Shown here: piece by piece, positions 4,239 to 60,171 of the stretch | Numbering within the stretch: position 1 is the stretch's first letter | How the letters are laid out: each line of letters opens with the position of its first letter | Source of the DNA: Peptococcaceae bacterium | GTDB lineage: Bacteria > Bacillota > Peptococcia > Peptococcales > Peptococcaceae | Reading direction: 5' to 3' | NCBI GenBank assembly: GCA_030524315.1 | Contig: JAUNGU010000002.1 | Coordinates: 2,749 to 66,748 of the forward strand | DNA length: 64,000 nt | Program-made: the position numbers and the translations under genes | Notes under the pieces: generated by a model | The model's database searches: none | What the model saw: the letters and a program-made list of their open reading frames with translations, nothing else | What the model was told of the DNA's origin: nothing

Positions 4239-5432
4239 CTAGTCCAGGAGATACTGGCGGATCTTGACGATCTCGCCGTTCTGGCGATAGACGCGGGGCA
4301 CGCGGCGATTGATGCCGCAGAAAATTTCGTGGGGGATGGTCGGAATGCGCGCGACGACCTCCTCGATAGGAATGCAGTCGTCCCCTTGGCGGCCGATGAT
4401 GACGACCTCGTCGCCGATTTGCACATCTGGGATGCCGGTGACGTTGATCATGCACTGGTCCATGCAGATGCGGCCGACGATGGGCGCGCGCTGGCCGTGG
4501 ACGAGGACCTCGTCGTTGTTGGAAAGGAGCCGCTGGAAGCCGTCGGCGTAGCCCAAGGGCAGCGTGGCGATGACCTCGCCCTCGGTCTGGGTGGCGTAGG
4601 TGCCGCCGTAGCTGATGCGCTCGCCCTTGGCCTCGCGCTTGACGTTGACGATGCGGCATTTGAGGCTCAGCGCTGGACGCACGTCGATGTTGTCGTTTTG
4701 GGTTTCGCTGCTTGGCATGACGCCGTAGAGAATGATTCCCGGCCGCGCCATGTCGAGAAAATAATCGGGATGGTCGACGATGACGGCGCTATTGGCGCAG
4801 TGGCGAATTTTTGGCACAAGGCCACGCGCTGCCAATCCTTCGAGAAAGAAGCTGTAGCGCTGCCACTGCATGGTGGTGTAGGTCTTGTCGGCTTCGTCGG
4901 CCTTGGCGAAATGGGTGAAGAGGCCGGTGAATTCGAGATTTGGCAGACGCAAAATCGCCGCCACCTCGTCCAGACTCGCCGCGTTTGGCAAAAAGCCGAT
5001 GCGGCCCATGCCCGTGTCCACCTTGATATGGACGTGGGCCGTTTTTTGTTGCGCCATGGCAGCCGCGCTCATCGCCTCGGCCAATTCGCGGGTATAGACC
5101 GCCTGGTCGAGGTCATTGGCGACGATTTCTGCGGCGCGGGTTGGCTCTGTATAGCCCAAAATAAGAATCGGCACGTTGGTGAATCCGGCGCGGCGCAGCT
5201 CAATCGCCTCGTCAAGAAACGCCACACAAAGCCCGTCGGCGCCGTTTGCCAAGAGCGTCGGCACAATTTCCACTGCCCCATGGCCATAGCCGTTGGCCTT
5301 GACCACCGCATACACATGCCGCTCCTCGCCGACGCGCGCACGAATCGCGCGAATCGTATACGCCAGCGCATCCAAATCTACCTCCGCCCACACCGGACGA
5401 ATGGTTTGCAAGAGATTTTCAGAAGACATCAT
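4239..5432 (-). CDS. alr: alanine racemase
   Basis: VVKANGYGHG PLP-lysine motif with full-length similarity to Alr. ATG at 5432 chosen (AAAGGG 8 nt upstream) rather than the TTG at 5453. Confidence 0.95.
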   Translation of the reverse strand: MMSSENLLQTIRPVWAEVDLDALAYTIRAIRARVGEERHVYAVVKANGYGHGAVEIVPTLLANGADGLCVAFLDEAIELRRAGFTNVPILILGYTEPTRAAEIVANDLDQAVYTRELAEAMSAAAMAQQKTAHVHIKVDTGMGRIGFLPNAASLDEVAAILRLPNLEFTGLFTHFAKADEADKTYTTMQWQRYSFFLEGLAARGLVPKIRHCANSAVIVDHPDYFLDMARPGIILYGVMPSSETQNDNIDVRPALSLKCRIVNVKREAKGERISYGGTYATQTEGEVIATLPLGYADGFQRLLSNNDEVLVHGQRAPIVGRICMDQCMINVTGIPDVQIGDEVVIIGRQGDDCIPIEEVVARIPTIPHEIFCGINRRVPRVYRQNGEIVKIRQYLLD

Positions 5433-5618
5433 CCACCAAACCCTTTCTCTCAAAGACTGAAATGTAAAAATATTCTTAGCTACAGTATAGCAAACAATCG
5501 GGATGAGTACAAAATTGCGGGGGAAGAAAGACGTTTATCTTCGCTTGGTCATCTATTATAATGAGGAGAAAGGTTGCGTTAAGAAAATTATTTTACAGAC
5601 ACAAAGGAGGTGCTCGAT

Positions 5619-6656
5619 TTGTCAAAGCACAACAATGACATCACCATTCGCTCGAGTGCAGCGGAATATCTGACCTATGTGGCGACCGTTGGCGACCAGC
5701 AGGACAGTATTGAGATGCGGTATGAGGACGAGAATATCTGGCTGACGCAGAAAATGCTGGCGACGTTGTATGATGTGGATGTGCGCACCATTAACTATCA
5801 CATCAAGAAGATATTCGCGGATAGCGAGCTGCAGGAAGAATCAGTCATCCGAAAATTTCGGATAACTGCCGCTGACGGAAAGCGTTATTCGACGAACCAT
5901 TACTCTTTGGAAATGATTATTTCTGTTGGCTTCAAGGTGAATTCCGGGCGTGCTGTGCAGTTTAGAAAATGGGTCAATCAGATTGCGAAGGATTACACCA
6001 TCAAAGGCTGGGTCATGGATGATGAGCGCCTGAAAAATGGTGGAACGGTGTTGACAGAGGCATATTTTGATCAGCTGCTTGAGCAAATTCGCGAGATTCG
6101 GTTGTCTGAACGTCGATTTTATCAAAAGATCACAGACATTTATGCCACCGCCCTCGATTATGACCGCAGCGCAAAAACCACGAAGCAGTTCTTTGCAAAG
6201 GTACAGAACAAGATGCATTATGCAGTCCACGGACACACGGCGGCAGAGTTGATTTATGCGCGTGCAGATGCAGACAAGCCGCATATGGGATTGACCACAT
6301 GGGCCGCTGCGCCGGACGGCAAAATTGTGAAGAGCGATGTCAGTGTTGCGAAAAATTATCTCTCAGAGCAAGAAATGCGTTCCCTCGAGCGCATCGTATC
6401 GGCCTATCTGGATTTGGCCGAAGACCGTGCGGAGCGACATATTCCTATGACCATGGAGGATTGGGCAAAGCGATTGGATTTATTCTTGATGGCAGATGAC
6501 AGGGAGATCCTTCAAGATGCAGGCAAAATCACAGCAGCCATCGCCAAGGCAAAAGCAGAGAGCGAATTTGAAAAATTTCGTATTGTTCAGGACCAGGTTT
6601 ATGTTTCCGATTTCGATATTTTTGTGTTAGAATTAGAAAAAGGTGCGAAAGCGTAA
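5619..6656 (+). CDS. RhuM family virulence-associated protein
   Basis: N-terminal region IRSSAAEYLTYVATVGDQQDSIEMRYEDENIWLTQKMLATLYDV...NYHIKKIF is typical of RhuM. TTG at 5619 lies 8 nt after AAGGAGG (5604-5610); the track's GTG at 5610 overlaps the RBS. Confidence 0.85.
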   Translation: MSKHNNDITIRSSAAEYLTYVATVGDQQDSIEMRYEDENIWLTQKMLATLYDVDVRTINYHIKKIFADSELQEESVIRKFRITAADGKRYSTNHYSLEMIISVGFKVNSGRAVQFRKWVNQIAKDYTIKGWVMDDERLKNGGTVLTEAYFDQLLEQIREIRLSERRFYQKITDIYATALDYDRSAKTTKQFFAKVQNKMHYAVHGHTAAELIYARADADKPHMGLTTWAAAPDGKIVKSDVSVAKNYLSEQEMRSLERIVSAYLDLAEDRAERHIPMTMEDWAKRLDLFLMADDREILQDAGKITAAIAKAKAESEFEKFRIVQDQVYVSDFDIFVLELEKGAKA

Positions 6657-16996: not shown

Positions 16997-17091
16997 GACA
17001 TCTTCGGTTAATAAATTGTGGTGCGATACGTTATGAACATGATATAATAGGAAAAAGTTTTCATAATTTTCTATGATAGGAGATGTTCGCG

Positions 17092-18066
17092 ATGAAAAAA
17101 TGGAGAGCGTTGTTTTTAGGAGGCGTGCTGGGCCTGCTGTTTACCGCTGTGCCGGCTTGGGCCTATGGACCGTATGTGGCGGTAGACGGTCTGCTATTTG
17201 AAATGGGCGCGCCGGTGACGGTGCATGCCGACGGCGAATATGTGGCGACGGATGTCCAGCCCTATATCAAGAATGGACGAACTTTTTTGCCGATGCGCGC
17301 TGCTGCCGAGGCTGTCGGTGCCAACGTGGGCTGGGATGGTAAGACACTCTGTGTGACTGTGCAAAAAGGTGAGACGCTGGCTTATTTTTTTGTCGGCAGC
17401 CGTACCTATTACGTCAATGACGTCGCACTCACAGCGTCTGTGGCGCCAGAGAATAAGGACGGACGCATTATGGTGCCGATTCGTGATTTTTCAGAAGCGG
17501 TACAGGCGACAGTCGATTGGGAAGGAAGTACAGCTAGCGTCGAAATTTACACAGGTGGGCCAGTTGCCGAAGCGCCGCAGCTGCCAAGCAGCATTCCTGA
17601 TGATGTGCGATGGTTGATCCAGAAATATTACGTGCAGGCAGACGGACAAGGCGCTGGAAGCTGGATGACGAGCGATTTGGAGAATTCGGCTCTACCAGAA
17701 TACAACCGCTTGCCTGGCTATGAATTTGTCCTTATTTCCAAAATGGCCAATGGCACGAAAGCGGCGACCGTGATTCGATATGAGCATCAGCCATTTATTG
17801 ACGGGATTACACAAATTGGGGTCAAGGTTTTTGCTGATTGTAAAATAGATAGGCTATTAGGAGAGACGTTGATTGAGCCCGAGTATCAGCCAACGTATTA
17901 TTTTGGTCTGCCGATCGAATTTCAGGTGAAAACCATTCGTCATTTTGTTCCGAGCGCCCAAAATTTGCGGCTCGTTGGCACGGCGACGGATTCTTTTACA
18001 GGACCGCAGATTGGCAAATATCCTCTTCCTGTGACGCCGTGCGACGTTTTATACACAGCGCTCTAA
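17092..18066 (+). CDS. secreted protein with copper amine oxidase N-terminal-like (stalk) domain
   Basis: Signal peptide ending AWA. NGRTFLPMRAAAEAVGANVGWDGKTLCVTV and DGRIMVPIRDFSEAVQATVDWEG repeats. ATG at 17092 lies 8 nt after TAGGAGA. Confidence 0.8.
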   Translation: MKKWRALFLGGVLGLLFTAVPAWAYGPYVAVDGLLFEMGAPVTVHADGEYVATDVQPYIKNGRTFLPMRAAAEAVGANVGWDGKTLCVTVQKGETLAYFFVGSRTYYVNDVALTASVAPENKDGRIMVPIRDFSEAVQATVDWEGSTASVEIYTGGPVAEAPQLPSSIPDDVRWLIQKYYVQADGQGAGSWMTSDLENSALPEYNRLPGYEFVLISKMANGTKAATVIRYEHQPFIDGITQIGVKVFADCKIDRLLGETLIEPEYQPTYYFGLPIEFQVKTIRHFVPSAQNLRLVGTATDSFTGPQIGKYPLPVTPCDVLYTAL

Positions 18067-35453: not shown

Positions 35454-36383
35454 GTGACCGAACAAAAGAATTCTTATTTTCACAGCTTTTTGCTCCTGCT
35501 CACAGCGACCATCTGGGGTGTGGCCTTTGTGGCCCAGAGCGTGGGCATGGATTATATTGGCCCGGCGACCTTTGTGGCGTCGCGCAGCGTCGTCGCCGTC
35601 GTCGTGTTGACGCCGTTGGTTTGGCTCCTGCGCCGTCGCGAAACTGTCGCACAGCCGAAGGAAAAAGCCAGCCCGAGCGAAATCCTGCGCGGCGGGGCGA
35701 TTTGCGGGGCGCTGCTCTTTGGCGGCATGCTCACCCAGCAGGTCGGCATCATCTATACGAGTGTCGGCAAGGCAGGCTTCATTACCACCTTCTACGTGGT
35801 GCTCGTGCCGCTGTTGGGCGTCGTCCTCGGGCGCAAAATCGGCTTGCGCATTTGGCTCGCCGTGCTCTTGGCAATCACCGGGCTTTATTTTCTCTGCATG
35901 CGGCCCGGCGGCTTTTCCATCGGTCTGGGCGACGCCATGGTGCTCGTGAGCGCCTGCTTCTACACGGTGCAAATCACCTGCGTCGACCGTTTCGTCACGC
36001 GCATCGACGGCGTCCTCCTGAGCTACATGGAGATGATCGCTTGCGCCGTCTTGGGCCTTCTCGCCGCCTTCCTCCTGGAGACGCCGAGCTGGCCCGACAT
36101 CCTCCGCGCCGCGCTGCCGATCCTCTACGCCGGTGGCTGCTCCAGCGCCCTCGGCTACACCTTCCAGATCATCGGCCAAAAAGGCGTCTCGCCAACGGTG
36201 GCGGCGTTGATCATGAGCCTCGAAAGCTGCATCTCCGCCATCGCCGGCTGGCTCATCCTCCACGAAGTCATGAGCGCCAGGGAAATCACCGGCTGCATCC
36301 TCATGTTCGCCGCCATCCTCCTCAGCCAGCTCCCAGCCAGCACCTGGCAACATCTCCACCTGCGCAAACGCGAACACAGCTAA
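35454..36383 (+). CDS. DMT superfamily (EamA-like) transporter
   Basis: 10-TM duplicated EamA pattern with a GTG start. The antisense ORF 35427..36392 is rejected. Confidence 0.85.
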   Translation: MTEQKNSYFHSFLLLLTATIWGVAFVAQSVGMDYIGPATFVASRSVVAVVVLTPLVWLLRRRETVAQPKEKASPSEILRGGAICGALLFGGMLTQQVGIIYTSVGKAGFITTFYVVLVPLLGVVLGRKIGLRIWLAVLLAITGLYFLCMRPGGFSIGLGDAMVLVSACFYTVQITCVDRFVTRIDGVLLSYMEMIACAVLGLLAAFLLETPSWPDILRAALPILYAGGCSSALGYTFQIIGQKGVSPTVAALIMSLESCISAIAGWLILHEVMSAREITGCILMFAAILLSQLPASTWQHLHLRKREHS

Positions 36384-36385
36384 AG

Positions 36386-36424
36386 ATGACAAAAGCGAAC
36401 CCCGGCGGTTCGCTTTTTTGTCAT
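36386..36424 (+). terminator. intrinsic terminator after the DMT transporter gene
   Basis: AAAAGCGAACC...GGTTCGCTTTTTT. Confidence 0.8.
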
Positions 36425-36443
36425 AGTGGATATTTATCGACGC

Positions 36444-36507
36444 TTCGTCCCGATTTCATCGCATTTCGTCCCGCATAGCAGATAATTCTTAAATTATGGT
36501 TTATAAT
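36444..36507 (+). promoter_or_regulatory. LytTR-type 9-N12-9 direct repeat (TTCGTCCCG x2) plus -10 TATAAT, upstream of the LytTR regulator gene
   Basis: Repeats at 36444-36452 and 36465-36473 with a 12-nt spacer. 28 nt separate the second repeat from TATAAT at 36502-36507. Confidence 0.65.
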
Positions 36508-36538
36508 AGGGAATAGGATGAAAAGGAGGAGGGGAAAA

Positions 36539-37240
36539 ATGAAAATTGCCATTTGCGATGATGATTCGGCGACCTTTGCTTGGATTGAGGAAGCCATAGA
36601 GGAGAAGCTCGGTGCAGAGGTCGAGTGTGAATTCTATGTAGACAGCCAGCTGCTGCTGGAGGATTTTCGAGGGGGCCAGCGCTATGATGTGTATTTTTTG
36701 GATGTATGTATGCCAAAGTGTGATGGCATCGAGCTGGCGGCCGCCATTCGGCGCGCCGATCCGCAAGCATTGATTATTTTTGTATCAGGCTACGAAGAGT
36801 ATGGCTATGCCTGTATCGCCTGCCAGCCCCTTTGCTTTGTCAAAAAAAGTAACTTGGATGCTGATCTTGACAAAGCGTTAAGGGCTGTTTCAAAAACGCT
36901 GGCGATGAGAGAAAAACGCCTAGCTTTCAAAAAAGGGCATGGAAACGTGTTGCTTTCGTGTATGGAGATTTTGTTTATCAAAGGCAGCCGCAACAATTAC
37001 GAGGTCCACACCACAGCAGGTGTCTACAATTTTTATGGCACGCTGGCTCAGGTGGAGAAAATTCTGCCCGACTATATCTTTGTCCGCTGTCACCGTTCCC
37101 ACATTATCAACATCCACCATATCAAAGGGCTGGGGCCGCGCGGCGTTTGGATAGATGGCAATGATGACCCACTTCCTGTCAATCAAAAGGGCTTGGACCA
37201 AATTAATTGCCGCCTTGGAGAAATCATCAGAGCGCGCTAG
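36539..37240 (+). CDS. LytTR-family two-component response regulator (receiver + LytTR DNA-binding domain), no adjacent kinase
   Basis: Receiver MKIAICDDD...YFLDVCMPKCDGIE...IIFVSGY...FVKK. C-terminal LytTR domain (ILFIKGSRNNYEVHT...FVRCHRSHIINIHHI). ATG at 36539 follows AGGAGGAGGGG. Confidence 0.9.
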   Translation: MKIAICDDDSATFAWIEEAIEEKLGAEVECEFYVDSQLLLEDFRGGQRYDVYFLDVCMPKCDGIELAAAIRRADPQALIIFVSGYEEYGYACIACQPLCFVKKSNLDADLDKALRAVSKTLAMREKRLAFKKGHGNVLLSCMEILFIKGSRNNYEVHTTAGVYNFYGTLAQVEKILPDYIFVRCHRSHIINIHHIKGLGPRGVWIDGNDDPLPVNQKGLDQINCRLGEIIRAR

Positions 37241-37336
37241 GATAGGAAATGATCATCGGCGTCACGCATTCGCTTGACGCACCATGGATGGACGCGCAGG
37301 TGCTCTTCCTAAGAAAATAATATTGTCATGACACAT

Positions 37337-37373
37337 GCAGCGATGCGCTCAAAAGCGCCGCTGCAAATTTTTT
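37337..37373 (+). terminator. probable terminator after the LytTR regulator gene
   Basis: GCAGCG..GCGC-TCAAAA-GCGC.CGCTGC stem, then AAA and TTTTTT. Confidence 0.5.
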
Positions 37374-37378
37374 ACCCA

Positions 37379-37442
37379 TTCGTCCTGATTGAATGATGTC
37401 TCATCCTGCAAAGAAAATATTGCGAATTTTGCATGATATACT
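37379..37442 (+). promoter_or_regulatory. second LytTR-type 9-N12-9 box (TTCGTCCTG / CTCATCCTG) plus extended -10 TGaTATACT
   Basis: Repeats at 37379-37387 and 37400-37408 with a 12-nt spacer. 28 nt separate the second repeat from TATACT at 37437-37442, with TG at 37434-37435. Upstream of the CDS at 37504. Confidence 0.6.
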
Positions 37443-37503
37443 TGAGATGAAGACGGTGTCTGTGCTCGGGAAGAATCTCGAAATATGAAAAGGGTGGCCT
37501 GCG

Positions 37504-38271
37504 ATGAAAAGCACAAAAATACATGCGATGGTAATTGTAGTAGTATCTTTGCTACTATGTGCTGGGGTGTATTCTGCAACTGCTGTGGCGCAAAAGGCGC
37601 AAGAACAGGAAGAGAAAACGATTATTAGTGAAACCTCTGCAACATTGGTGAAGTATGATTACGAGGCTTTGTTAATGGATGCGCCGGTTATTGTAGAAGC
37701 CCGTACAATCGATGCTTCCGAGCCCTTTCAGATTCAACCTGTAGGTGGAGACGAAAATGCGAGAAGCAATTTTGTGGATTATACCATCGAAGTGGAGGAT
37801 GTATTCCGAGGAAATATGAGCAGTGGTGATACCTTAGATGTCCGCATTGAAGGCGGCAAGGTGGGGAATCTCGATGTGCGTTTTCATGAGGCGCCAACAC
37901 TGCATATGGGCCAATCGTGTCTGCTGTTTTTGTACCAGCCAAAAATGGGCGCAGGGTACAATACAGAAGGTGACTACTATTATGTGCTAGGATTGGAACA
38001 GGGGGCGTTTCATCCTGTCGAAAATGGTGACAAGACCGTCCAAGGTTATCAAAATGATTTGGGCAATGTGATAAAATTAGAGACGCTGACAAAGGATATC
38101 ACAGAACTCAGCAAGCAAAAGAATGTATCAGTTGGAAATGAGAACAGGGTGTATGAAGAATTTTTGGCAAATCAGAAGGCTAATTTGGAAAGTGGATACA
38201 TTTCAAAAGAAGAGTATGATCGCTTGCTCAGTGACGCGAGAGAATATGCAACGATCGTTCAAAAGAATTAG
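37504..38271 (+). CDS. secreted hypothetical protein (255 aa)
   Basis: N-terminal signal/anchor MKSTKIHAMVIVVVSLLLCAGVYSATAVA. No family recognised. Preceded by the second LytTR-type box. Confidence 0.7.
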   Translation: MKSTKIHAMVIVVVSLLLCAGVYSATAVAQKAQEQEEKTIISETSATLVKYDYEALLMDAPVIVEARTIDASEPFQIQPVGGDENARSNFVDYTIEVEDVFRGNMSSGDTLDVRIEGGKVGNLDVRFHEAPTLHMGQSCLLFLYQPKMGAGYNTEGDYYYVLGLEQGAFHPVENGDKTVQGYQNDLGNVIKLETLTKDITELSKQKNVSVGNENRVYEEFLANQKANLESGYISKEEYDRLLSDAREYATIVQKN

Positions 38272-38334
38272 TGCATTTAGAACGCGCGTGTTTTTCGGCT
38301 TGCCAGAGGTTACTAAATGAGGGGGGTAACTGCG

Positions 38335-39057
38335 ATGTTTAAGCATTGGATGAAGGCGACTGCGGTGGCTGTGTTGCTGGGGGTGTCGGTGCTGGGCTGT
38401 GGGGCGCAGGAGGAGGCTGCGGTGTCTACGCAGGCGGAGGCGCGCTACGAGAAAATTTCTGACACGCTTTATGTTGATGATGCAGCGGTGCGGGTGAATG
38501 ACGATCAGGCTGGGGACGCGAAGCAGATCAAGGACCAGGTCGAGAATTTGGTGCTCCGTGTGCTGCATGCGTCCTACCAGGGGCGGATTGGTACGGTGGA
38601 TGGCGATTTTATCAAGGCGCCGGGACTGGAAGCGGAGCTGGGCGCGCGCATTGCCTACCTCGCCCAAAAATATGATGATGCGGAGTTTGCCAACACGGCG
38701 GCTTATCTGCGGATCAACCATTTTGACATCCAAGACGACGCGGCCAAGGTCATCTGCGATGTTGCCATCAAGGATCCTGAGACAGGCGACGTCAAGGTAG
38801 AAAACCACGAAGGCTATGTCTTTGTCAAGGACGGGGATCACTGGTGCCTGATCAACGACATTGTCGATACGGGTCGTGGCGGCGCGAAGGTTTTGGAGGC
38901 CCTGGTGGAGAACACAAATCCGACCGACTGGAAAACGACCTACTCCTACGAAAATCTCAAACGCAGCGACTACGAAGACGCGCCGGATTTTGTTGCGTTC
39001 TTGAGCGACGATGGCATCACCGCCGATCCAGAAAAAGTCAGCGCCGACGCCCAGTAG
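38335..39057 (+). CDS. hypothetical lipoprotein (240 aa)
   Basis: Lipobox VLGC. ATG at 38335 lies 8 nt after GAGGGGGG. Starts 63 nt after the preceding gene with no intervening terminator. Confidence 0.7.
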   Translation: MFKHWMKATAVAVLLGVSVLGCGAQEEAAVSTQAEARYEKISDTLYVDDAAVRVNDDQAGDAKQIKDQVENLVLRVLHASYQGRIGTVDGDFIKAPGLEAELGARIAYLAQKYDDAEFANTAAYLRINHFDIQDDAAKVICDVAIKDPETGDVKVENHEGYVFVKDGDHWCLINDIVDTGRGGAKVLEALVENTNPTDWKTTYSYENLKRSDYEDAPDFVAFLSDDGITADPEKVSADAQ

Positions 39058-39098
39058 TCCAAGCTTACGTTATTGTCGAAAAAATATGGGTCATACGC

Positions 39099-39148
39099 AA
39101 AAGCCCTCTCTACACAGGCTGCCTGTGTAGAGAGGGCTGATTTTTTTT
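39099..39148. terminator. bidirectional terminator (lipoprotein / CHAD gene convergent)
   Basis: 17-bp stem AGCCCTCTCTACACAGG / CCTGTGTAGAGAGGGCT followed by T8. Confidence 0.85.
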
Positions 39149-39156
39149 GCAAGCAA

Positions 39157-40683
39157 TCAATGCTTCTTCTTGTGCTTTTTCGCGCGGGATTTTTTGCAGG
39201 TGCAGTCGCCGCCGTCGGCTTTGTGCCGTTTGCAGGTGCATTTGCGTTTTTGGTCGTGGTGTTTGTCGGATTTTTCTTTGTGGCCGTGGTGTTTTTTCTT
39301 TTTGCAGGATTTGTCTTTTTTGTCGTGCTTGTCATGTGTCTTTTTCTTGTCGGCCTTGGCCTTGTCTGTGTGAGCGACATCCTGGCGCACCTCTTCGATG
39401 AGGTGGTCGACGACGTCGAGCTGGTCGGCGGCGGATTTGGCCATCATCTGGGCGTAGAGGTTCATGGCGCGGTCGACGCCGGGCTGCATGTGGTCCTCAA
39501 AGAGGGCGTGGAGGTGCTCCATATTGTAGAAGGTGTCGCAATAGGTGCTCAGGCGTTGATTGAGGCGACGGATGCGCAAATATTGCTTGGCTTGGCGATA
39601 ATCGGCCAACGGGCTGAAAAATTCGAAGAGGTAGCGCGAGGTTTTGCAGAGGGCGCGCAGGGCTTCTGTGTCAGCGAGGTTCGTGAAGTCGGTGGAGAGC
39701 ACTGCTTCCTGAACGAGGTGATAACGGCTGATGAATTGCTCACGCACGAGCTGCTCTAGTGGCTCTGTGCGCTGGACGGTCATCAGCGCAGCCATGATCA
39801 GGTGCAGGGCTTCGCTGTAGGCGGCTTCGCTTTCCGGCTGGCTCAGCTGGTCGCAGAGATCCATGACGGCGGAATTTTGCTCGACGACGAGGGCGTCGGC
39901 CAGGGGTGCCAGCTCGAGCTTGCGGGAATTGTGGATGGTTTTGAGGATGGCGTTGATGCTGCGCAGTTCCTCGAGGTCCTCATAGAGGGAAAGGTAGTGC
40001 TCCTCGGCCAGCTCAAAGCTCTGGCTCGTGCAATAAGGCCGCAAAAATTCGATCAGCGCATACTGGGAGCGCAGAGCCACGCGCAAGCGGCTGAGCGCCT
40101 CGCTGTCGTCAGGATCATCGAGAAAATGGTCGCGGGCCTCGATGATTTTTTTGTGCTGATTTTGGATCATCGTCTCGATGCCGATGCCCATTGGCACCGT
40201 AAAGAGCTTGAGGTCGGCCATTTTGCCAAAGCTCAAATCGCTGATGCGGATGGCGTCGCGGGGGCGCTGGGGCGCGAGATAGAGCATCTCGCCGCGGCCC
40301 TTGCGAAACATCACGTCCATGCGCGTCATTTCTCGCAGCCAGTTGCTGAGATAGGGCTCGTGGCCGATGACGACGATGGTCATGCCGTGGTCGAGGGTGG
40401 AGAGTGCTTGGCAAAAGGCGTCAAAATCCCCTTCGGCGAGAAAATCCTTGACCTCCGGAAAAATATGTGGCGTGTAGCGACAGAGCACCTCTGCCGTTTG
40501 CAGGGCGCGGGTTTTTGGCGAGGTCCAAACCTCGCAGTGGGATTTTGTGTTCAAAAAACGTGCCAATGAGGGATAGGCATTTTCCAGCCGCTCGCGACCG
40601 TTTGCGGTCAGGGCACGGTGTACATCTGTGTGATCATAGGAAGCATCCTCTGCTTGGCCGTGGCGAATCAAAATTAAACGCAT
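39157..40683 (-). CDS. SixA-type histidine phosphatase fused to a CHAD domain, with Lys/His/Cys-rich C-terminal tail
   Basis: N-terminus MRLILIRHGQAE...SPKTRALQTAEV...VIGHEPYLS (His-phosphatase RHG and GHEP motifs). Central helical region with LSRLRVALRSQYALIEFLRPY is CHAD-like. Last ~70 aa are K/H-rich with two CTCK motifs. Confidence 0.8.
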   Translation of the reverse strand: MRLILIRHGQAEDASYDHTDVHRALTANGRERLENAYPSLARFLNTKSHCEVWTSPKTRALQTAEVLCRYTPHIFPEVKDFLAEGDFDAFCQALSTLDHGMTIVVIGHEPYLSNWLREMTRMDVMFRKGRGEMLYLAPQRPRDAIRISDLSFGKMADLKLFTVPMGIGIETMIQNQHKKIIEARDHFLDDPDDSEALSRLRVALRSQYALIEFLRPYCTSQSFELAEEHYLSLYEDLEELRSINAILKTIHNSRKLELAPLADALVVEQNSAVMDLCDQLSQPESEAAYSEALHLIMAALMTVQRTEPLEQLVREQFISRYHLVQEAVLSTDFTNLADTEALRALCKTSRYLFEFFSPLADYRQAKQYLRIRRLNQRLSTYCDTFYNMEHLHALFEDHMQPGVDRAMNLYAQMMAKSAADQLDVVDHLIEEVRQDVAHTDKAKADKKKTHDKHDKKDKSCKKKKHHGHKEKSDKHHDQKRKCTCKRHKADGGDCTCKKSRAKKHKKKH

Positions 40684-52696: not shown

Positions 52697-53989
52697 TTAG
52701 TAACCGCGCGTGAAGGTGACGCGGCTTGTGAGGCCTTGGTCATTAGAGTAGGCCTGGACACTATAGCCGATGAACTCGGCGACGAAGCGGATTGGCACCA
52801 TGGTGCGGCCGTCGCTATTGATATACGGCACGGCGTCCATTTGGTAGACCTTGCCGTCGATGGCGTAGTGGTTGTAGCCGACAGACATGGTCAGGACGCG
52901 GTCGTCATAATAGGTGGTGATGGTGCGGACGCTGTTGTTGTATTCGACGCGCGCTCCCAAGAGCTCGCCAATGGCGCGGAATGGGACGTAGGTGCGGCCG
53001 CCTTTGACGACAGGTGCCGTGTCCATCTGGATCGGGCGATCGTCGACGTTCATACTCGTGGAGCCAATGTTGAATTCAACGGTGCGTGGCCGGTAAACGT
53101 ATTCGCTCAGAGGCACGACCACCGGCTGATCACTCAGAGAGCAACGCAGCTCGAGGGTGGTGCTGTCTGTGGCCTGGCCGTTGATGGTGAAGCGAGCGAT
53201 GCCGTTTTCATCGGTGCGCACCATGACGTTGGAGAGGGAGACGATTTCCGAGGCCGTGTTGAGATAGACGGGAACGTCAGCGCCGACGTTTGTGCCATTA
53301 GATCGCAGGAGCTGGAGCTGGACCTCGGTTTTGACGGTTGTGCTCGTATCCAAGGAAATCGACGAGGAAATCGTCTGGTTGCGCGGATTGTTGATGGCAA
53401 AGGAATCGGCGCTGAGGCCGCGGATCGTGCTCGAGACGACCATGATCGCCACATCAGATGCCGGTGTGGCGTCGATGATAATGGTGCGATGGGCCGCGCT
53501 GCCGCCCGTCAGCTCAAAGGGCCAGTAGTTGGTGACGTTGTTGGGATCAATGTTTCCCGTCGGCATGTAGAGGGCGTGGAGCTCGTAGCTACCCGAGGTG
53601 GTCAGCGTCAGGCTGAAGCGCTGGGATGTTTTGAGGGAAGCGGCGTCCATAATGAGCACGCCCTGGCGGCTCGTCTGGTGGATGTAGACCTTGCTTGCAA
53701 GGGAGCGATCGACGACGTCGAGGTCTGTGACGATCTCGTCGTTTTCATCGGTGGCCCAGATGTAGACCTTGCCCGGGGGCGTGGAGGAGATGGCGTTTCC
53801 GGCGGCATTTTTGAGCTGGATTGTCACTGGAAAGCTGTGGTACGGATAGGCGTGGGTATTGCTGGCGCCGGTGGTGATCACCGATTGGTCCGGGGACGCT
53901 TCGTAGTCGACGGCTTCGGCCGGTTGGATACAGCCAGCGGTGAGCAAGGCGGCGACAAAGGCGAGCGCCGCGAGAAATTTTTTGTGCAG
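52697..53989 (-). CDS. secreted/lipoprotein with Ig-like repeats and C-terminal copper amine oxidase N-like stalk domain; probable CTG start
   Basis: C-terminus GGRTYVPFRAIGELLGARVEYNN...DGRTMVPIRFVAEFIGYSV. The ORF track starts at TTG 53947 (MLTAGC...), but the signal peptide n- and h-regions (HKKFLAALAFVAALL) lie upstream of it. They are in frame behind CTG 53989, which sits 7 nt after GGAGG. Confidence 0.75.
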   Translation of the reverse strand: MHKKFLAALAFVAALLTAGCIQPAEAVDYEASPDQSVITTGASNTHAYPYHSFPVTIQLKNAAGNAISSTPPGKVYIWATDENDEIVTDLDVVDRSLASKVYIHQTSRQGVLIMDAASLKTSQRFSLTLTTSGSYELHALYMPTGNIDPNNVTNYWPFELTGGSAAHRTIIIDATPASDVAIMVVSSTIRGLSADSFAINNPRNQTISSSISLDTSTTVKTEVQLQLLRSNGTNVGADVPVYLNTASEIVSLSNVMVRTDENGIARFTINGQATDSTTLELRCSLSDQPVVVPLSEYVYRPRTVEFNIGSTSMNVDDRPIQMDTAPVVKGGRTYVPFRAIGELLGARVEYNNSVRTITTYYDDRVLTMSVGYNHYAIDGKVYQMDAVPYINSDGRTMVPIRFVAEFIGYSVQAYSNDQGLTSRVTFTRGY

Positions 53990-54062
53990 GATTGTCCCTC
54001 CCGTTTGTTATTATTTCTCCATTTTAACAAATCTTCCGCTATTTTTCGTTGCAATATGATGT

Positions 54063-58825: not shown

Positions 58826-58968
58826 CGCTTCAGGACTCCTTTTGTCAATTATCAATATCATGTTATATTTTACTTTAATTGGACGGGTTTGCGCAACTGC
58901 CAGAAAAGCACTTTTTTTATTTTTCAAAGATGTTATAATCAAGATAGAATCACAAAGGAGGTGCGCAC

Positions 58969-60171
58969 ATGAAACACACCCATTCGCGCAGATTGGCAGC
59001 GGCGCTGATTTTGTCGCTGGCGGTGACGAGCCTGCCGGTGGCTGCCGAAGAAAATACCGACCCGGCGCCCCACGAGGAGCAGGGCGAAAATGCTGGCGAC
59101 GTGCAGGTCACCACGCCGACCTCGCCGTATAGTGACGGTCATCAGGAGGCTGACGGTCTGCCAGCAGTCAGCGGCATTCTTCTCGTCAACAAAAAGCATT
59201 CGCTACCAGCCGATTATGCGCCATGCGGCCCGGATCAGAGCAACACCCTCTATGGTGAGGCCGATCAGGCGGCCAAGGATTTTATCGCGGCAGCCAACGC
59301 CCAGGGCTATTCCATGTACATGCTCTCCGGCTATCGCAGCTACAGCGTGCAGCGGGATCTCTTCGCCCGCTACGCCGCCCAGCACGGCGAGGAACGCGCC
59401 AACACCTACTCGGCGCGTGCAGGTCAGAGCGACCACCAGACAGGCCTCGTCTTTGACGTTGGTGACAATGATCACCCAGCCAACAATCTGGAAACGTCCA
59501 TGGACCAATTCCCCGGCACCCAGTGGATGATGGCCCATTGCGCCGATTACGGCTTCATCGTCCGCTTCCCAAAGGGCAAGGAAGCCATCACCGGCTATCA
59601 ATATGAGCCATGGCATTATCGCTACGTTGGCAAAAATGCCGCCAAGGAAATCATGAGCCGTGGCATCACCCTCGAGGAATTCCTCGGTGACACCGACAGT
59701 GGCGTCGACAATGGCCGTCGCATCGCCATCGGCCGCAACGACAATCGCCTCAACGTCGACGGCGCCTATTCAGAGGTGGCCAGCTACAACATCGGCGGCA
59801 ACAATTATTTCCGCCTGCGCGATCTGGCGACCATCCTCACAGGAACGTCTGCCGCCTTCAACGTCGGCTATGACTCCCAGAGTCGCCATATCACCCTGAC
59901 CAGCCACGCGCCAATGACCGAATCGCCGACCCTCGTCAGCTTGAACGGCAACGACGTCGCCGTGCCAAACGGCATCACCGTCCTCGCCGATGGCGCGCCG
60001 GTATTGCCAGCGGCCTACAACATCAACGGCTTCACCTATTTCAAGCTGCGTGATTTGGGCCAGCTCCTCGGCTTCACCGTCGATTGGGACAGCGCCTCAA
60101 AGAGCATGGTCGTCACCACCCAGGCCGACGCCCTCTTGACGACGCTGCTAGAGCCGGTCACCATTCGCTAA
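58969..60171 (+). CDS. secreted M15B (VanY-like) D-alanyl-D-alanine carboxypeptidase with C-terminal stalk-type repeats
   Basis: Signal peptide, then LVNKKHSLPADY, SGYRSY, SDHQTGLVFD and EPWHYRYVG motifs. C-terminal NIGGNNYFRLRDLA and INGFTYFKLRDLG repeats. Confidence 0.85.
   Translation: MKHTHSRRLAAALILSLAVTSLPVAAEENTDPAPHEEQGENAGDVQVTTPTSPYSDGHQEADGLPAVSGILLVNKKHSLPADYAPCGPDQSNTLYGEADQAAKDFIAAANAQGYSMYMLSGYRSYSVQRDLFARYAAQHGEERANTYSARAGQSDHQTGLVFDVGDNDHPANNLETSMDQFPGTQWMMAHCADYGFIVRFPKGKEAITGYQYEPWHYRYVGKNAAKEIMSRGITLEEFLGDTDSGVDNGRRIAIGRNDNRLNVDGAYSEVASYNIGGNNYFRLRDLATILTGTSAAFNVGYDSQSRHITLTSHAPMTESPTLVSLNGNDVAVPNGITVLADGAPVLPAAYNINGFTYFKLRDLGQLLGFTVDWDSASKSMVVTTQADALLTTLLEPVTIR

Follow-up and report, generated by a model that had tools for sequence, protein, structure and literature searches.

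Among described systems, the locus treated here is closest in organisation to cdtR-cdtA-cdtB of Clostridioides difficile (CdtLoc), a compact, island-like unit in which the gene of an orphan response regulator with receiver (REC) and LytTR domains, CdtR, immediately precedes two genes that CdtR activates and whose products are exported. CdtR has no linked kinase, yet its phospho-acceptor Asp61 is required (PMC6699598), which makes it a precedent for LytTR regulators that lack a kinase partner and nevertheless depend on their aspartate. The locus lies in a 64-kb stretch of the genome of a Peptococcaceae bacterium (contig JAUNGU010000002.1, positions 2,749 to 66,748; hereafter the window, numbered from its first letter), where the gene of a LytTR response regulator is followed by two genes for exported proteins, designated T1 and T2 (Table 1). 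The targets of CdtR form a binary ADP-ribosylating toxin, whereas T1 and T2 are predicted to be Tim-like and NTF2-like, and there is no sequence orthology between the two loci, the window regulator having no close relative in the searches run. The window itself carries an identically spaced paired box before both the regulator and its target. The region from about 36390 to 39140 is read here, with a probability of roughly 0.6, as a horizontally acquired and reduced output module of the agr type, and its promoters would work like an AgrA/ComE-type LytTR promoter pair.

Four further systems frame this reading. Full agr loci, including the clostridial loci L001, L011, L091, and L101 (L numbers denote related loci fetched for comparison), share with the window the AgrA-type domain architecture of the regulator, a 9-bp repeat at a 20-21-bp period before a promoter without a -35 element, and a cargo at the 3′ end that consists of an M10 protease with a T1 homologue or an Amidase_6 protein with a T2 homologue. 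They differ in that the window lacks AgrC, AgrB, and AgrD, and in the box itself, which reads TGTCGTTT or TGCCGTTT in agr loci and TTCGTCCYG in the window. In Listeria, a secreted metzincin, Mtz, is found with a TIMP-like lipoprotein, Tim (Boichis et al. 2021, PMC8235301), and in prophage copies the mtz-tim promoter regions are reported to share a long identical stretch with the region that precedes agrBDCA (PMC8235301). Compared with this pair in Listeria monocytogenes (LMRG_00713/00714), T1 is a remote Tim homologue, both proteins are predicted to be TIMP-like, and the T1 homologues of relatives directly follow an Mtz-like metzincin with the motif HExxHxxGxxD/H. The pair is likewise tied to mobile elements and Agr-type promoters, and non-Listeria homologues carry a signal peptidase I (SPase-I) signal (PMC8235301). 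In contrast, no metzincin stands immediately upstream of T1 or elsewhere in the window, a dedicated LytTR regulator takes the place of the CI/Cro switch found in Listeria, and T1 contains an additional loop, QPxMGGGYNTEGDYYY, along with a SHOCT-like motif in its C-terminal helix.

The LytTR Regulatory Systems of the HdrRM/BrsRM type resemble the window in their positive autoregulation through 9-12-9 repeats placed a few bp ahead of the -35 position, in many cases together with an extended -10 (PMC6193735). Their regulators lack the receiver domain and its aspartates and are paired with a membrane inhibitor gene, whereas the REC domain of the window regulator is complete and the product of the following gene is a secreted, beta-rich OB-fold protein rather than a multi-pass membrane protein. 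With a REC domain present and no membrane inhibitor, the locus falls outside this class. Bacteriocin loci of the "cheater" or eavesdropping kind, such as pneumococcal blp, keep the regulator and immunity genes and lose signal or toxin genes, and orphan immunity genes at large invite the same comparison. The window likewise keeps a regulator and putative protective partners where enzyme and pheromone genes have been lost, and an intermediate is available in L100; it differs from the blp loci in that even the kinase is lacking and in that the immunity function of T1 and T2 is putative.

The regulator and its paired promoter boxes

The regulator matches Response_reg (E 4e-13) and LytTR (PF04397; E 1e-15, 58 bits against a cut-off of 22.6 bits) in Pfam, and its similarity to AgrA, LytR, and BtsR in NCBIfam is weak and far under the cut-off in each case. 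Matches in the Protein Data Bank (PDB) include the AgrA LytTR domain (3bs1) and ComE (4cbv), and the receiver aligns with solved receiver domains. The residues D7/D8/D9, D55 (FLDV), S83, and K102, read from the translation, are all kept, so the acidic pocket and phospho-acceptor context noted in the original prediction are present. The intrinsic terminator that had been assigned to the gene is also found, with a free energy of -18.9 kcal/mol (z -3.56).

Within the 64-kb window the regulator is an orphan. An agr system has an adjoining AgrC-type kinase of the HATPase_c_5 family together with AgrB and AgrD, and neither a kinase nor AgrB, AgrD, or a protease was found in the window by tblastn with the agr-locus proteins of L001. 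A phmmer search of the window's open reading frames (ORFs) with 453 ORFs of at least 250 aa from 96 loci, a query set that held many kinases adjoining LytTR regulators, likewise found no kinase. The absence of kinase, pheromone precursor, and exporter from the neighbourhood, stated in the original prediction, is borne out by tblastn and phmmer searches of the window with agr-locus proteins from relatives, and in searches with the LytTR regulators of relatives this regulator was the only LytTR protein detected in the window. An AgrD-like peptide is missing from the short ORFs of the 37230-37510 interval, between the regulator gene and T1. The candidate for an AgrD-like peptide or a kinase remnant between the regulator and its terminator was just a 23-aa ORF (37249-37320) with no AgrD features, and it was rejected. 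This 23-codon ORF (MIIGVTHSLDAPWMDAQVLFLRK) starts 9 nt past the regulator stop and precedes the terminator, where agr loci start the kinase gene; it could be a remnant, with no detectable similarity.

Target promoters of LytTR-type regulators carry two 9-bp repeats with a 12-13-bp spacer and a weak or absent -35 element, and this layout is found at both promoters, P1 and P2, with a spacer of 12 bp. Box 1, upstream of the regulator gene, is a perfect direct repeat with a centre-to-centre distance of 21 bp, and box 2, upstream of T1, was predicted to share its geometry; the sequence reads exactly so (Table 1). The hexamers located 17 nt upstream of the -10 elements, CAGATA at P1 and AAAATA at P2, are both poor -35 matches, and a generic sigma-70 scan finds no full sigma-70 promoter on the + strand at either site, in agreement with the proposal that both promoters lack a -35. 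In a published table of LytTR promoters, a 9-12-9 repeat with 28 nt to the -10 (about 5 nt, the -35 position, and 17 nt) falls within the range (PMC6193735). A similar layout precedes agrB in related loci, and the attribution of the boxes to the LytTR type is supported on both counts. Outside the boxes and the -10, the P1 and P2 regions show no obvious similarity; the preserved part is therefore the geometry of the 9-12-9 repeat, the 28 nt, and the -10.

The composite box pattern matches without mismatch at two sites in the window, boxes 1 and 2 only. When up to two mismatches are allowed there are three matches against 0.06 expected, a number reached in 0 of 100 shuffles, and with up to three mismatches there are four matches against 0.56 expected. 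The motif, whose occurrence at chance frequency genome-wide would have spoken against the original prediction, stands far above chance within the window. Lone 9-mers with one mismatch number 29 against 29.5 expected, which is chance level, so the signal resides in the paired architecture. Perfect 9-mer direct repeats at a 20-22-bp period occur four times in the whole window, box 1 among them.

From the sequence, a regulatory circuit in which an autoregulated LytTR regulator drives T1 and T2 from a second, identically built promoter is plausible and in keeping with the rules of its family. Phosphorylation on D55 would let the regulator occupy both 9-bp direct repeats of a box as a tandem dimer; the boxes lie at about -70 to -41 in promoters with a -10 element and no -35. 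Binding would recruit RNA polymerase, leading to positive autoregulation at P1 and, from P2, which lies just past the regulator's terminator, to transcription of a T1-T2 operon. T2 starts 63 nt past T1 with no terminator detected between them, so the two genes are probably co-transcribed. With no kinase linked, the phosphoryl group would need to come from an unlinked AgrC-type kinase or from a small-molecule donor. The earlier proposal of autoregulation together with control of the downstream pair therefore stands in part: the geometry fits and the regulator is locally an orphan, while the description of the system as an orphan one and of its targets as unassignable has to be amended, as discussed below.

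Table 1. Features of the island and of the third box candidate, in window coordinates.
Feature	Position	Strand	Description
Left-edge terminator hairpin	36391-36417	.	After the EamA gene, left island edge; 11-bp stem, scored on the - strand
Box 1	36444-36452 and 36465-36473	+	TTCGTCCCG-N12-TTCGTCCCG; read from sequence
P1 -10	36502-36507	+	TATAAT; begins 28 nt past box 1; -35 absent
Response regulator gene	36539-37240	+	REC + LytTR, 233 aa; Pfam
Intrinsic terminator of regulator gene	37336-37374	+	Two-tier hairpin 37336-37365, then AAATTTTTT
Box 2	37379-37387 and 37400-37408	+	TTCGTCCTG-N12-CTCATCCTG; upstream of T1; read from sequence
P2 extended -10	37434-37442	+	TGaTATACT; TG 37434-37435; hexamer 37437-37442 starts 28 nt past box 2; -35 absent
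T1	37504-38271	+	Predicted SPase-I-type signal (AVA/QK), Tim/TIMP-like OB-fold, SHOCT-like C-terminal helix motif
T2	38335-39057	+	Predicted lipoprotein (lipobox VLGC), NTF2-like fold, paralogous to the Amidase_6 N-terminal domain
Right-edge terminator	39102-39138	+	Strong; right island edge; 17-bp stem + T-run
Third box candidate	5499-5528	-	TTCTTCCCC-N12-CTCATCCCG, 2 mismatches; intergenic, upstream of the alanine racemase gene (4239-5432), correct orientation

Tim-like T1 and NTF2-like T2

Neither target is assigned to a family by Pfam, NCBIfam, or PHROGs, and both had originally been held to be unassignable. This does not hold, since T1 can be placed as a Tim/TIMP-like partner of matrixin-like proteases and T2 as an NTF2-like protein related by paralogy to the Amidase_6 N-terminal domain. 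For T1, a word-indexed search returned 35 homologues, and an exhaustive search with the T1 profile returned 7,173 cluster representatives at E <= 1e-3, with 821 at E <= 1e-10; given these numbers and the lack of a Pfam match, T1 is a member of a large family that has no Pfam model. The family has a strongly conserved loop, QPxMGGGYNTEGDYYY, and T1 keeps every residue that is invariant among its members. A lipobox is present in about a quarter of the family, T1 itself having the SPase-I-type signal. A tblastn search of phage and plasmid collections with T1 found no match.

Eight independent contexts of T1 homologues were examined (L001, L004, L007, L088, L090, L099, L011, and L098), with the T1-homologue loci grouped as L001-L003, L004-L006, L007, L088-L089, L090, L099, and L011. 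In seven of the eight, the gene immediately before the T1 homologue encodes a secreted relative of Peptidase_M10 with a length of about 200 aa, and L098 holds a degenerate copy. The Pfam Peptidase_M10 model is matched above the cut-off in L007, L088, L090, and L099 and just below it in L001 and L004, and HExxH was read in the proteases of these six loci; the upstream protein of L011 matched solely a custom hidden Markov model (HMM) built from these M10-like proteases. In L098 (5362-5982), the protease homologue upstream of the T1 homologue lacks HExxH and reads FFARIRTYSRLDD, a degenerate or pseudo-protease that is still paired. Three cluster representatives (P0061, P0085, and P0090; 408-419 aa) are Rosetta-stone fusions with the M10 part N-terminal and the T1 part C-terminal. 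No M10- or Mtz-like ORF was found in the 64-kb window, so T1 is solitary here, without a protease partner in the window.

T1 is a remote homologue of Listeria Tim and can be called a Tim-like protein. A Listeria mtz-tim locus was recovered (L097), and the T1 profile aligns with Tim by hhalign (E 8e-5, probability 61%). An enlarged T1-family HMM gives Tim 21.2 bits, while among about 770 decoys the highest score is 11.5 bits. In addition, the partner proteases of T1 homologues can be aligned with Mtz over both the HExxHxxGxxD/H motif and the Met-turn.

The AlphaFold model of T1 (predicted local distance difference test score, pLDDT, 87) has a beta domain and three C-terminal helices. In a Foldseek search of the PDB, the top matches of this model are TIMP-2 (1br9, 2e2d, 1bqq, 1gxd), the NTR domain of PCOLCE1 (template modelling (TM) score 0.56 on the target), and the C345C domains of C3/C4, with generic OB-folds next in rank; a fold search of BFVD returned OB-fold noise and was uninformative. 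TIMPs (MEROPS I35) and NTR domains have an N-terminal Cys1 after signal cleavage and a conserved disulfide framework. The alignment of the T1 family has no conserved cysteine outside the signal peptide, and T1 is therefore not a TIMP by sequence. No sequence match to TIMP or NTR was found in Pfam, and the T1 profile had no match in the PDB; the resemblance is at the level of the fold alone.

The C-terminal helix of T1, at residues about 225-245 (NLESGYISKEEYDRLL), resembles a SHOCT-type motif, GIITQEEFDQKK. Weak matches of the T1 HMM after LytTR regulators in L160, L164, L166, L167, L177, L178, and L180 had raised the prospect of a recurrent arrangement of regulator and T1. In L164 (3708-4622), the sole one inspected, only the SHOCT-like C-terminal motif GIITQEEFDQKK is shared, and these matches were rejected as spurious. 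Such spurious matches to the SHOCT motif came from unrelated proteins beside LytTR regulators in human-gut contigs.

T2 has nine homologues with 47-58% identity, and it keeps 51 invariant columns; its model (pLDDT 85) is NTF2-like. T2 is 33% identical over 173 aa to an Amidase_6 protein (enzyme residues 76-248), with an HMM E value of 6e-25 over HMM positions 55-248. The catalytic Amidase_6 domain (PF12671) lies at enzyme residues 280-420 and T2 aligns to the non-catalytic N-terminal part alone; T2 is not itself an Amidase_6 enzyme. Amidase_6 is grouped with papain-like NlpC/P60-CHAP-type peptidoglycan amidases (PMC10318531) and is among the putative wall hydrolases listed for B. subtilis (PMC10653849). 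A T2 homologue lies directly downstream of an Amidase_6 gene in L091, L093, and L101, and in L095 a T2 homologue lies near three HATPase_c_5 kinases and a LytTR regulator. In L093/L094 (3853-10636), the pair of Amidase_6 and T2 homologue is found on a mobilisable element with a resolvase, a Mob_Pre relaxase, and a TraG-like coupling protein, and without agr genes. The Amidase_6 and T2 cassette is thus able to move independently of the quorum-sensing module.

The island and the agr loci of relatives

The island lies between two terminators (Table 1). Nucleotide homology to the syntenic relative represented by L001-L003 ends at 36334 and resumes at 39392; the EamA and CHAD genes are adjacent in that relative, and in the window a 2.7-kb island stands between them. 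The shared genes are hyp136, YgbA_NO, Fe-ADH, EamA, CHAD, and CCG, at about 70% nucleotide identity, with the TetR gene common to both at the protein level alone (39%). Across 36400-38400 the GC content drops to 0.43-0.50, from 0.60-0.65 on the upstream side, and on the downstream side it is 0.55-0.59, as expected from the remark in the original prediction that the regulator and first target are AT-richer than their flanks; over T2 it is about 0.55-0.58. An Rfam scan over the island gave no match. Derivation of the island by deletion from a locus such as L001 was rejected, as the agr module of L001 is located elsewhere, between the hyp136 gene (after TetR) and YgbA_NO, and the two regulators are just 28% identical.

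In relatives, the families of T1 and T2 are carried by agr loci. A complete series of response regulator, histidine kinase (HATPase_c_5), AgrB, and AgrD is followed by the M10-T1 pair in L001-L003 and in L011, which was found independently and fetched for regulator similarity alone, and by the Amidase_6-T2 pair in L091 and L101. In L001, L091, L011, and L100, agrB is preceded by 9-bp repeats whose period is 20-21 bp and then by a (TGn)TATAMT -10, the distance from repeat to -10 in the agrB promoters of the complete loci being 25-33 nt. The repeats in L001, L091, and L100 share a TCGT core with the window box, and those of L011 (TGCCGTTTA / TGCCACTTT) are without it. Look-alike boxes upstream of the enzyme genes in L001 and L091 have 4-5 mismatches and a different spacing and were judged unconvincing.

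L100 (3136-4181) is a reduced intermediate between a full agr locus and the window island. It encodes a response regulator and a histidine kinase, then a 72-aa AgrB stub corresponding to about the first 36 residues of AgrB, to which a T2 homologue is fused almost directly, and it has neither agrD nor Amidase_6. The stub is 52% identical to the AgrB of L091 over 33 aa, and ahead of the stub-T2 unit stands a repeat of ATGTCGTTTACG with a period of 20 bp, followed by TGcTATACT, a predicted LytTR-box promoter. Elsewhere, the T1 and T2 families appear as the second gene of pairs of a secreted enzyme and its partner (M10 protease with T1, Amidase_6 with T2); the window retains only the regulator and the two partner genes. 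It is the position of T1 and T2 homologues at the 3′ end of full agrACBD loci, together with the L100 intermediate, that leads the window locus to be read as a reduced agr-type module. The term orphan, as first applied to the system, is thus kept for the absence of kinase, AgrB, and AgrD from the 64 kb and is otherwise replaced by this description.

The original notion of a compact regulon agrees with the two boxes of the island and is perhaps too narrow, since a third, differently placed box precedes the alanine racemase gene. It ends 9 nt before a TATACT (5489-5484) and overlaps the -35/spacer region. This candidate could mean repression of a wall-precursor gene, or it could be due to chance (0.06 expected per window, a prior of roughly 6%). 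The gene of a RhuM-family virulence protein (5610-6656) is divergent from the alanine racemase gene and shares with it the intergenic region of the candidate box. Proteins with a Cu_amine_oxidN1 domain are encoded at 17080-18063, 52700-54007, and 58948-60168, one of them fused to a VanY D-Ala-D-Ala carboxypeptidase, and the same domain family recurs beside T1 and T2 homologues in L004, L088, and L093. Next to the island, the His_Phos_1 + CHAD protein (39157-40683, - strand) has a Lys/His/Cys-rich tail of about 60 residues (…KKDKSCKKKKHHGHKEKSDKHHDQKRKCTCKRHK…), which accounts for a strong negative AT skew at 39000-39600.

Weighing protection, remodelling, and decay

Several observations weigh against the reading of the island as a horizontally acquired, reduced agr-type module. 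Identity between the window regulator and its counterparts in agr loci with T1 or T2 homologues is no more than 28-34%, which marks the island as related in kind to these loci and not as a direct derivative of any locus seen. Its closest homologues in all collections searched are about 32-34% identical among the matches listed, the best in the genome and metagenome contig collections reaching 32-33% among those listed, and a word-indexed search of 5.8 billion proteins at E <= 1e-20, a threshold stricter than necessary, returned the query alone. The box motif of the window does not occur beyond chance in the 96, and then 181, related loci fetched, and the sequence immediately before the enzyme genes of L001 and L091 shows no clear LytTR box. 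The regulator and T1 (GC about 0.45) may differ in origin from T2 (GC about 0.56). The fold matches of T1 to TIMP and NTR are weak (E 2e-3 to 5e-2, low TM), though their theme is consistent, and its OB-fold is common to many unrelated proteins. Furthermore, the orphan status of the regulator holds for the 64-kb window, not genome-wide.

The lack of the motif beyond chance in the 181 loci also bears on whether the repeats belong to the adjacent regulator at all. They might be sites of another factor, a product of chance, or the trace of a promoter region duplicated during assembly of the island, and the boxes are predictions from sequence in which both promoter regions could stem from one segment. 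This is very improbable, given that P1 and P2 lack obvious similarity beyond boxes and -10, that the geometry preserved between them is the LytTR signature (PMC6193735), and that the boxes adjoin the sole LytTR protein detected in the window by searches with the LytTR regulators of relatives, at a chance expectation of at most 0.06 per window. A different doubt is raised by the absence from the window of the signalling partners and of both enzymes, from which the island might be taken as the decaying relic of an agr-type locus, with a regulator that is no longer activated and no present function. The stepwise decay visible in relatives, with the AgrB stub of L100 and the protease without HExxH of L098, would agree with this, as would the lack of close relatives of the regulator among the matches listed in the collections searched. 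However, the three ORFs are intact and of full length, the catalytic residues of the REC domain and the invariant residues of T1 and T2 are kept, box 1 is perfect, and both promoters have identical spacing and good -10 elements. Orphan T2 homologues also recur beside LytTR systems (L095 and L100), which points to retention rather than accident, and a mere relic is therefore considered unlikely.

If the island is a functional, reduced agr-type module, its partner genes would be kept under signal-responsive control because their products act on or against wall-active enzymes. T1 could be a TIMP-like binder or a substrate of Mtz-type proteases, and T2 a membrane-anchored copy of the amidase's own N-domain. 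As the window encodes no such enzyme, the gene for it would have to lie in another part of the genome or belong to neighbouring cells. A protective or "orphan immunity" role of T1 and T2 may, speculatively, be inferred from a fold like that of TIMPs, from the fusions of M10 with T1, and from the persistence of partner genes where the enzymes have been lost. In its fullest and decidedly tentative form, the locus would be an orphan protection cassette: T1 as a secreted inhibitor of Mtz-type metzincins and T2 as a decoy of the Amidase_6 N-domain would shield the wall from the quorum-controlled lytic enzymes of neighbouring Clostridia, under a regulator without its own kinase, pheromone, or weapons that is driven by kinase cross-talk. 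Against protection stands the Listeria system itself, in which Mtz cleaves Tim, and Tim cooperates with the protease instead of inhibiting it (PMC8235301). The phenotypes in Listeria need both Mtz and Tim; cleavage sets Tim free, and the pair exerts its effect on neighbouring cells (PMC8235301). T1 and T2 might thus be effectors instead of protectors, T1 being released by a protease from elsewhere to remodel or sensitise the wall, T2 serving as a wall-binding module, and the regulator controlling a programme of wall remodelling or autolysis. The homology of T2 to a non-catalytic wall-hydrolase domain, which could be a targeting domain, and the candidate third box before a cell-wall precursor gene would suit such a role. 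However, there is no M10 protease in the window, and T1, having an SPase-I signal, does not have to be freed from a lipid anchor. An inhibitor or a pro-domain-like role would suit the TIMP/NTR-like fold and the fusions equally well, and the loss of enzymes with retention of partners in L100 and the window is the pattern expected of protection genes. An effector role is on balance doubtful, slightly more so than the protection cassette.

Should the protection cassette prove true, the series from full agr locus through L100 to the window would record the repeated evolution of "immunity-only" listeners, and the agr loci of gut Clostridia would commonly deploy pairs of enzyme and immunity protein as bacteriolysins. 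If the regulatory circuit proposed for the reduced module is right, the island is a minimal LytTR circuit of two promoters, one motif, and two outputs, suited to the study of how orphan AgrA-like regulators are activated, a question that CdtR of C. difficile raises as well. The analysis also defines the T1 family, with about 7,000 cluster representatives and no Pfam model, in which most examined members lie directly downstream of a matrixin-like protease and three are fused to one, and a second, small family of copies of the N-domain of Amidase_6 wall hydrolases, represented by T2. Pairs of M10 with T1 and of Amidase_6 with T2 are recurrent cargo of agr-type loci in uncultured Clostridia, which raises the hypothesis that many gut agr systems control secreted wall-active enzymes together with their partners. 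The loci described here offer a natural reductive series in which it may be asked whether these partners are immunity factors.

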